Positions 32,348-34,016 of a stretch of 64,000 bases of DNA are shown piece after piece. Source of the stretch: an uncultured Clostridia bacterium (GTDB taxonomy: Bacteria; Bacillota; Clostridia; TANB77; CAG-508); NCBI GenBank assembly GCA_948852945.1, contig CAQPBJ010000001.1, forward strand, positions 64,417-128,416, written 5' to 3'. The translations under genes were made by a program, and so were the position numbers. The notes below the pieces were generated by a model, which was not told where the DNA came from, made no database searches, and saw nothing but the letters and a program-made list of their open reading frames with translations. Positions within the stretch are counted from its first letter, which is position 1; each line of letters starts with the position of its first letter.

Positions 32348-32527
32348 AATTATTACTCCATTTACATTTATATAAAAAAGTATATCATATTAAAAAAATA
32401 GATTCAAATTAAGCAAATTCATAAATCAATTTTAAAATATCAATACGTTATATTATAAAAAAGGCGGGAGCTCGTTATTTAATAACTATGCTCCCATGTA
32501 AGTTTTTAGGCAACAGATTACAGTGCA

Positions 32528-33874
32528 TTACACTACCTGTCGTACAATAGTCTTGCTGTTATCGGCGCCTATCCCAAGATAAACGATAGGAACACCAACA
32601 GCTTGTTCAATTGTTTCGACAAAGCGTTTTGCCTCTTCAGGCAAATCCTCATAACTTGAGCAATCCTCCGGAATAGTCCAACCGTCAAATTTATGCTCAT
32701 AGATAGGAATAGGATGAAAGCCAGTAACCTCACAGTCCTCAGGAAGATAATCAATGATTCCTCCATCATACTTATAAGAGGTACAGATAGCAATTCCATT
32801 CTCTGTCTCAAATTTGTCGCGCAGAACGTTTCCAACAATACCAATCGAATCAAGATGATTCAAATTGATTTTAGTGACGCCGAGCCGCTTAACAGCGGCT
32901 TTGAAACGCACCAAGTCGAAATGACCGCAACGACGAGGTCTACCAGTGGTAGTACCAAATTCATGAGCAACTTCACGAATGACGTCACCCACAAATGAGC
33001 TATCTTCGGTTTCAAAAGGACCTTCTCCAACACGAGAGTTGTGAGCTTTAGCAACACCAATAATATCTTTTACATAGATAGGCGCGATGCCAGCTCCAGA
33101 GAGAGTTCCAGAGGAATTAGGGTTGGATGAGGTCACAAACGGATAATCGCCCCAATCAAGGTCCAGCCAAATGCTCTGAGCCCCTTCAATAACGATTTTT
33201 TTGTCTGTGCCAACCCAAGTGTCCAGATATCTGCTAACATTGCAGATGTAGCTACCAAGAGCTTCTTTCCAGCGAGAACAAGAATACATCATAGCATCAA
33301 CATCAAACGTAGGACAGCCGTGAAGCTTAAATTCCTCGTTGTGTTTTTCTACAATGTAACTGACCTTTTTATACAACTTTGAATAGGGAAGAAAAAGGTC
33401 AATCATGCGGATGCCAATGCGATCTGCTTTATCCTTGTAATCTGGACCGATGCCCCTGCCAGTGGTACCAACTTTTGAGTCACCTTTTCTCATTTCGTCC
33501 AAAACATCCTGCTGCTTATGAAACGGGAAAATAATATGAGCCCGATTGCTAAGCATAAGATTATCTGGACCGACGTGAACGCCAGCCTTCTGAAGCATTT
33601 CAATTTCAAAAATCAACACCTCAGGGTCAACAACCACGCCATGAGAAATGATACTCATCACATTGGGTCAAATGATACCAGAAGGAATAAGATGCAAGGC
33701 ATATTTTACGCCGTTATGCACGACTGTATGCCCAGCATTATTACCGCCAGTGGCGCGAATGACAATGTCTGCATCTTCACATTCGAAAAAAGCTGCACGA
33801 CCTTTGCCACAATCGCCCCAGGTAGTACCTTCGATTATGGTAACATTCTGCCGAGGAATGAATGCATTAACCAT
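32528..33874 (-). pseudogene. purA: Adenylosuccinate synthetase with an in-frame TGA (high-GC cassette G)
   Basis: ORFs 33668-33874 ([10 protein letters not shown]...GGNNAGHT...HLIPSGII) and 32528-33661 are in the same frame. They are separated only by TGA at 33668-33670. Local GC is much higher than in the flanks. Confidence 0.8.
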
Positions 33875-34016
33875 AGCCTAAAATACTCCTTTCACAAGTG
33901 CGAGAGTTACCATAAAAACTTACATAAGGAGTATAACACGGATTCTAGTATTTATCAAGGAATAAAGAGGAAAATAAAAAAAGAAACGAATATAATTCGT
34001 TTCTCTAAATTAAAAT

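Follow-up and report, generated by a model that had tools for sequence, protein, structure and literature searches.

The question raised by this locus is why an otherwise intact purA gene should carry a single TGA codon within its reading frame. The gene lies on the minus strand of the window, which is the whole stretch of 64,000 nt analysed here from an uncultured Clostridia bacterium (contig CAQPBJ010000001.1 of assembly GCA_948852945.1, positions 64,417 to 128,416), and its predicted product is adenylosuccinate synthetase. The assembly (G000) comprises 1.64 Mb in 49 contigs and is 74% complete, a limit that applies to every negative result given below for this genome. The TGA is probably a nonsense allele that segregates in a recently acquired, dispensable purA under parallel inactivation, and it would reflect gene decay rather than a change of the genetic code. 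As a kind of case, a segregating nonsense allele in an acquired gene is ordinary and well documented.

The TGA codon and the inactivating alleles of purA

The purA frame consists of two open reading frames (ORFs) on the minus strand, 33671-33874 and 32528-33661, which lie in the same frame and are split by one TGA at 33668-33670. With the TGA read through, the frame comprised 448 codons and ended with a TAA at 32525-32527. An earlier reading made from the letters of the window (the sequence-only reading) had described two same-frame minus-strand ORFs, a single in-frame TGA and a P-loop upstream of the stop. The ORF layout and the junction sequence agreed with this description, but the frame length of 445 codons given there was incorrect.

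A search of a protein collection recovered a 448-aa protein (P0001) that is 100% identical, by rounding, to the window purA, and the contigs encoding it translate under table 11. These contigs differed from the window at 2 of 1347 bases, with TGG for TGA at codon 69 and TGG for GGG at codon 434. A homolog with 88% identity (L008) has TGG at codon 69 and GGG at codon 434; therefore, the ancestral state was Trp69 and Gly434. TGG was also found at codon 69 in the intact alleles L122-L131 and L002-L007. Judged from these alignments, the TGA at codon 69 arose from TGG (Trp) by a G-to-A transition. Other homologs carry Tyr (4m0g), His (3r7t) or, in more distant cases, Arg, His or Ile at this position. 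The Arg that the sequence-only reading gave for E. coli thus falls within the range of distant homologs, but the immediate ancestor had Trp.

The TGA was not limited to this assembly. The exact 68-aa product and the 376-aa ORF were called on at least 23 contigs from other assemblies in several accession series, and three copies (L101, L102 and L104) matched the window over all 1347 nt, TGA included. TGA was present at codon 69 in the independent assemblies L100-L104, L106, L107 and L109, while TAG occupied the same codon in L105, L108, L110 and L111. Recurrence of TGA in independent assemblies indicates a real allele and not the sequencing error that the sequence-only reading had named as its possible undoing. 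That the TGA stems from faulty sequencing, assembly or binning might be suspected from the 49 contigs and the incompleteness of the genome. The probability of such an artefact is negligible, since the whole gene with its TGA was identical in three independent Logan assemblies and the TGA was found on three other haplotype backgrounds as well. The exact pattern around codon 69 had no match in the JGI metagenome contigs, among which records close to this genome were apparently absent from the set scanned.

To describe the alleles, the DNA of truncated or out-of-frame forms was taken from 90% protein clusters, and 39 copies were aligned. The haplotypes are listed in Table 1 relative to the intact purA allele. 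Allele counts refer to contigs of many runs, and they are not independent because the same allele often recurs among runs of a single accession series. As the alleles were sampled through protein variants, synonymous variation is hidden.

Table 1. Haplotypes of purA among near-identical strains, with changes given relative to the intact allele.
Haplotype	Copies	Changes
Intact	L122-L131; protein P0122; index, 75 blocks	No changes
Window type	Window, L101, L102, L104	G207A (W69*, TGA); synonymous C756T
L100 type	L100	TGA69; Q121Q; G434V
L103 type	L103, L106, L107, L109	TGA69; K183N; diverged 3' half
L105 type	L105, L108, L110, L111	G206A (W69*, TAG); H100H; K183N; G262S
L117 type	L117-L121	C361T (Q121*)
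L112 type	L112-L116; index, 27 blocks	R140S; one A lost from GAAAAAC at codon 176
L002 type	L002-L007	G434W

The intact form (P0122) was the most widely recorded one and is 2 nt from the window. Its enzyme frame is whole in these other strains, whereas the frame is broken at codon 69 in the window. Further broken products (P0127, P0137, P0142 and P0128/P0129) were frameshifted around codons 22, 140 and 168 or had a lesion before codon 295, and some of the broken products carried out-of-frame tails. No internal fragments from the same contigs were found in the engB protein cluster. The TGA and TAG at codon 69 represent at least two separate events, and codon 434 was evidently a second codon that was hit repeatedly (Trp and Val).

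Across 2.7-4.2 kb of flanking genes, serS excepted, these strains and the window differed at 0-5 sites, so the purA lesions arose inside a nearly clonal species. Four-gamete violations were observed between purA sites 207 and 549 and between sites 549 and 756. These violations point to recombination or recurrent mutation, and thus the TGA on a diverged background need not be an independent event.

The G-to-A change at codon 69 would stop translation after 68 residues, and most ribosomes would then make no enzyme. At least seven independent inactivating alleles of purA circulate naturally beside the still-common intact allele. So many inactivating alleles in circulation suggest that purA is dispensable in the host and is being lost. 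Strongly AT-biased mutation would push a GC-rich foreign purA towards AT-rich stop codons once selection was relaxed. All six outgroup-polarised point changes in purA that are non-synonymous or stop-creating run from G/C to A/T. The sequence itself, TGG as the ancestral codon, the independence of the alleles, the foreign source of purA and the empty site are directly shown, whereas we infer that enzyme activity has been lost, that selection is relaxed or possibly favours the loss, and that mutation bias is the cause.

This pattern resembles the polymorphic pseudogenes of bacterial populations, in which one gene likewise bears several nonsense and homopolymer-frameshift alleles among nearly identical strains and has an intact allele that is still segregating. 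As in those cases, purA is accessory in the genus and foreign in composition, and its pathway partner purB is frameshifted in another strain. It differs from them in the repeated hits on single codons, at least two at codon 69 (TGA and TAG) and two at codon 434 (Trp and Val). In annotation, the purA of this record is best labelled a pseudogene (strictly, a nonsense allele) and should not be translated with an alternative table. Some automated callers translated relatives with table-4-like or TAG=Gln models.

Two further ideas about codon 69 were tried and rejected. The apparent revertant 'W69Q' (P0133) turned out to be the TAG allele after translation with TAG=Gln. A deamination hot spot at GGCC (within TGGCC), which might have explained repeated hits on codon 69, was unsupported, as the sole clear C5-methyltransferase adjoins a MutH-domain protein. 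In the genome, GGCC was the second most under-represented 4-bp palindrome (observed/expected 0.61), and GATC was the most under-represented one (observed/expected 0.43). The methyltransferase gene itself (G000:C7:70347-74376, L170) stands beside a gene for a 461-aa protein with two MutH-domain matches, and the pair is taken to be a Sau3AI-type (GATC) restriction system on the basis of its domains.

Identity, foreign origin and earlier selection

With the TGA read through, the purA product exceeded the cut-offs of both NCBIfam purA equivalogs (NF002223, 435 bits against 402; TIGR00184, 412 bits against 395.6). The Pfam PF00709 score was 444 bits. The best solved relative was the adenylosuccinate synthetase 4m0g (356 bits), and the motifs GGNNAGH, GTTGRGIGP, EGAQ and TTTGRPRRCG were all kept in the alignment to 4m0g and 3r7t. 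The catalytic and substrate motifs looked for (the P-loop GDEGKGK with Asp13, GGxNAGH with His41, GTTxxGIGP, the Gln of EGAQ and TTGRxRR) each had a counterpart there, the P-loop with Cys for Glu. The protein is like canonical bacterial PurA (TIGR00184/NF002223; PDB 4m0g and 1ade) in its full-length match above the equivalog cut-offs. It differs in two traits of its whole clade, a GDCGKGR P-loop in which Cys replaces the Glu of GDEGKGK (P0001-P0012, L008 and L020) and some 11 extra residues following NHLD that the solved adenylosuccinate synthetases lack. Identity as PurZ, the phage succino-amino-deoxyadenylate synthase, was ruled out because the NF038379 score, 106 bits, was far below the cut-off of 300, in contrast to the purA equivalogs, whose cut-offs were exceeded. 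PurZ and the window protein share a divergent place in the PurA family and a changed nucleotide-binding region, but unlike the phage gene, the window purA sits among chromosomal housekeeping genes.

The composition of purA set it apart from its host. Its G+C content was 43.5% and its G+C at third codon positions (GC3) 0.38, compared to 27.7% G+C for the genome, whose long ORFs had a GC3 of 0.138 +/- 0.05. CGG, which occurs at three Arg codons of the purA frame, is nearly missing from the AT-rich ORFs of the host (0.077 per 1000 codons) and reaches 5.5 per 1000 codons in GC3-rich, foreign-looking ORFs. The homologs L008 and L020, which are under purifying selection, likewise have CGG at Arg positions. 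The genes serS and engB are neighbours across the genus, and the gap between them is 20 nt in the sister species G004 compared to 1,669 bp in the window. The protein was 42-46% identical to the native purA products of the genus, 52-56% identical to P0013, P0015 and P0025, of which P0025 is recorded as a Clostridia bacterium metagenome-assembled genome (MAG), and 60-88% identical to P0002-P0012. Foreign composition, an empty site in G004 and higher identity to outside proteins than to the native purA of the genus are the marks of a xenolog, and all three were found for purA. By these marks, purA is a horizontally acquired xenolog that was inserted between serS and engB.

The gene would have come as a self-contained cassette including a promoter, a ribosome-binding site (an AAAGGAG lies upstream of the purA ATG) and a terminator; the features are collected in Table 2. 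The sequence-only reading had regarded this purA as compositionally foreign, with its own promoter and terminator, and as the sole purA of the window. Composition, site predictions and the PF00709 search agreed with it, and the PF00709 match was the single one in the assembly. A second intact purA, which would have altered the case for that reading, was accordingly absent from the assembled contigs.

Table 2. Features of the purA locus in the window (positions count from the first letter of the window).
Feature	Position	Strand	Basis
Whole insert, 1,669 bp, from serS stop to engB start	32348..34016	-	Comparison with sister species G004
Intrinsic terminator of the purA cassette, GGGAGC...GCUCCC hairpin then U6	32457..32495	-	Predicted fold, -14.1 kcal/mol, z = -2.5
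purA xenolog, adenylosuccinate synthetase, 448 codons, broken once at codon 69	32528..33874	-	ORF layout, family matches
C-terminal ORF, 376 codons from ATG (codon 73)	32528..33658	-	Called in other TGA/TAG assemblies
Codon 434: GGG (Gly, ancestral) in the window; TGG (Trp) in L002-L007; GTG (Val) in L100	32573..32575	-	Allele alignment
CGG Arg codons in the purA frame: codons 8, 111 and 330	33851-33853, 33542-33544, 32885-32887	-	In-frame
In-frame TGA, codon 69, next base C; from TGG (Trp), G-to-A at gene nucleotide 207	33668..33670	-	Intact alleles and L008
N-terminal ORF, 68 codons, with P-loop GDCGKGR and GGNNAGH	33671..33874	-	Exact product on at least 23 contigs elsewhere
Sigma-70-like promoter of purA, TTGATA-17 nt-(TG)TATACT	33930..33958	-	Promoter-like site, predicted

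Among the 22 species genomes of the genus, this purA clade was present only in G000. Six other genus genomes have a native, AT-rich purA (31-33% G+C) with the canonical GDEGKGK, and purB is directly adjacent to it in 3 of these 6. Apart from G000, the search covered 21 species genomes, and 14 of them gave no purA match. When genome contigs were scanned with P0001, most hits were distant Patescibacteria purA genes that share one motif, and only L020 was informative. This homolog, 70% identical and from a more distant Clostridia MAG, occupies the same serS-engB site. In three hosts, purA was more GC-rich than its AT-rich flanks (GC3 of 0.38, 0.33 and 0.22).

The dN/dS of purA was 0.07-0.12 in comparisons with L008 and L020. 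Such values mark the purA clade as a long-term working enzyme under strong purifying selection between species. As dN/dS is low between the purA lineages, the decay appears to be recent and local to this species.

Recoding, read-through and a split enzyme

We examined how TGA is used elsewhere in this genome. TGA ended 45 of the 767 ORFs of at least 250 codons (6%), and only 1 of these 45 frames stayed open for more than 60 codons beyond it. The three host stops cited in the sequence-only reading (6074-6076, 38680-38682 and 49185-49187) all read TGA, and its view that a global reassignment of TGA is unlikely held, since TGA otherwise acts as a stop in long ORFs. RF2 scored above the cut-off in 20 of 21 other genus genomes. 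RF2 was missing from G000, but its loss there was considered and rejected, because the neighbourhood expected from sister species G004 begins at position 1 of contig C23, which indicates an assembly gap. Among the 30 tRNAs found by ARAGORN in the assembly, none had a UCA anticodon and none was a tRNA-Sec, and every SelB match in the assembly fell below the cut-off. The RNA downstream of the purA TGA folded no better than shuffled sequence (z = -0.65) and gave no Rfam match and no SECIS-like fold.

When the whole genome was screened for pairs of ORFs connected by one TGA, 248 candidates emerged, and the ten longest with a single TGA were translated. Most of these ten were antisense-frame noise, and besides purA only one, an HNH endonuclease of about 311 aa (G000:C24:5636-6605), had family or homolog support across the TGA. 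Its single in-frame TGA stands at a conserved Gly position, which is Gly in the near-identical P0163 and in closer homologs and Ala in three more distant ones. From this alignment, the TGA evidently makes the HNH endonuclease another accessory gene with a nonsense allele. With TGA at a Trp position in purA and at a Gly position in the endonuclease, the codon has no consistent sense meaning in the genome. Another of the ten, on contig C11, looked like a separate frame break. It concerns an M23-peptidase-like ORF on the minus strand of G000:C11 (reverse-complement offsets 22876-24286), whose GSTG..H.HFE motif is lost to the apparent break (…GSTGNSTRKSFTF*) just before a site-2-protease-like gene.

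The host tRNA-Trp was unusual. The only tRNA-Trp(CCA) found in G000 (C3:66305-66379) has a U27-C43 mismatch, which leaves the anticodon stem at 4 bp and unpinned at its upper end, and a U11:A24 pair. An unpaired 27:43 position together with A24 was present in all 20 tRNA-Trp genes recovered (L174-L193), which came from this genus and from three further families in the order, with the mismatch being C-A or A-C in some relatives. A24 in tRNA-Trp is known as the Hirsh suppressor. In E. coli, termination at UGA is weak when C follows, and in Bacillus subtilis the wild-type tRNA-Trp decodes UGA with low efficiency. Anticodon stems of 4 bp occur in about 9% of bacterial tRNA-Trp(CCA) genes and are associated with lower UGA stop usage (PMC13092985). 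When a 4-bp-stem tRNA-Trp(CCA) was overexpressed in E. coli, UGA read-through rose about 2.5-fold, the effect at native levels being untested in that work, which also names A9C and G24A as changes shown to ease UGA read-through (PMC13092985).

These observations bear on whether the TGA might still be decoded. As the stop stands at a former Trp codon, any read-through by the host tRNA-Trp would rebuild the wild-type enzyme, and it is plausible from the tRNA features that the TGA allele is leaky and not a strict null. A stronger proposal is that UGA-C is usefully read by the host tRNA-Trp(CCA), so that Trp is restored, the allele works as a functional hypomorph and the change is near-synonymous. 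The unpaired 27:43 and A24 shared by all relatives recovered, the links of the 4-bp stem and G24A to read-through (PMC13092985) and the use of TGA at the end of only 6% of long ORFs favour it, and the host tRNA-Trp is indeed like the UGA-suppressing tRNA-Trp(CCA) variants in having A24 and an unpaired 27:43. We nevertheless consider useful read-through unlikely. TAG69, Q121* and the frameshifts are just as widespread, so the population tolerates true nulls and has no need of a rescue; the other in-frame TGA, at a conserved Gly, gives no sign of a tolerance specific to Trp positions; RF2 is kept across the genus; and PMC13092985 itself states that the effect at native tRNA levels was untested. 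In contrast to known UGA-suppressing systems, this genome keeps TGA as a stop, the genus keeps RF2, the population tolerates TAG and frameshifts, and the host case is known from sequence. If the host tRNA-Trp does read UGA, then TGG, TGA and TAG at codon 69 would form a natural allelic series for the measurement of read-through. It is quite improbable, in our view, that this AT-rich Clostridia order, whose lineage has genomes of about 0.9-2.0 Mb, is midway through a change of the genetic code, with UGA ambiguous, RF2 still kept and the purA TGA, found on several haplotypes, as a first step to UGA=Trp.

Programmed recoding of the TGA, as selenocysteine or through a lineage-wide reassignment to Trp or Gly, has next to no probability. 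The use of alternative tables by some gene callers for relatives could be cited for it, but the instance of P0133 is a TAG allele read as Gln. Against it stand the TGG of the intact alleles at the homologous codon, the long ORFs that do not run on beyond TGA, the presence of RF2 in the genus, the failure to find tRNA(UCA), tRNA-Sec, SelB or a significant downstream fold, and the differing positions of TGA within genes, Trp in purA and Gly in the endonuclease. Thus, where the sequence-only reading had proposed a recent nonsense mutation or else read-through or recoding, the TGG69 of the intact allele upheld the mutation, and recoding was not borne out. An enzyme split in two would offer another way to retain function. 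Translation would restart 6-9 nt past the stop at a GTG (33659-33661, one codon before the ATG start of the C-terminal ORF, giving 377 aa) or at that ATG, and the 68-aa P-loop piece and the 376-aa piece would assemble non-covalently into an active enzyme. The variable position of the stop (Tyr in 4m0g, His in 3r7t, and Arg, His or Ile in distant homologs), the start codons within 9 nt and the fact that the TGA and TAG alleles would yield the same two pieces are compatible with it. Inspection by eye, however, revealed no Shine-Dalgarno-like motif before the restart codons, no naturally split adenylosuccinate synthetase was present among the homologs or solved structures found, and the other breaks fall at unrelated codons (about 22, 121, 140, 168, 176 and before 295) with out-of-frame tails, as fits decay. 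We regard a split enzyme as very improbable.

Some points weigh against the interpretation of purA as a decaying gene with a segregating nonsense allele. The reality of the allele is established from other assemblies and not from the reads of this one. With the features of the host tRNA-Trp and the UGA-C context, the allele may not be null. A second purA, an apt or an RF2 gene is possible in the missing part of the assembly. The L103 type differs from the window at 16 nucleotides, of which 13 are synonymous changes; this could mean that constraint continued after the stop, but the four-gamete violations point instead to recombination or recurrent mutation. Finally, an excess of purA loss-of-function alleles over the neutral expectation is no more than suggestive, given the ascertainment by protein variants.

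Purine genes of the host and the neighbouring serS

The partner gene purB lies elsewhere in the genome, on contig C15. It is intact and of the E. coli type, with 46% G+C and an ASL_C domain, and in another strain it is frameshifted near codon 365 (P0144). The hpt gene was present in the window, whereas searches of the 74%-complete assembly recovered no purH, guaB or apt. This gene set suggests a purine-salvaging organism in which the acquired branch from IMP to AMP (purA and purB) would be optional. Read in this way, the locus would provide a clear case of an acquired IMP-to-AMP branch, with purA here and purB elsewhere in the genome, that is lost again within one species.

The purB gene is part of a second GC-rich island (G000:C15:40222-43765; L144 4223-7766), in which a gene for a 583-aa protein with about 39% G+C precedes purB. 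The 583-aa protein had no match in Pfam or NCBIfam.

Beside the purA insert, the serS of the window (34017-35303) had diverged by about 3% (39-42 nt) from its counterparts in otherwise near-identical strains and was 99.15% identical to that of sister species G004. From these identities, it looks like an allele imported by recombination. A partial match to a T-box leader (36418-36500; 28.8 bits, E = 0.0014), which runs off the end of the searched stretch, was located upstream of the dcd-DUF1653-serS unit.

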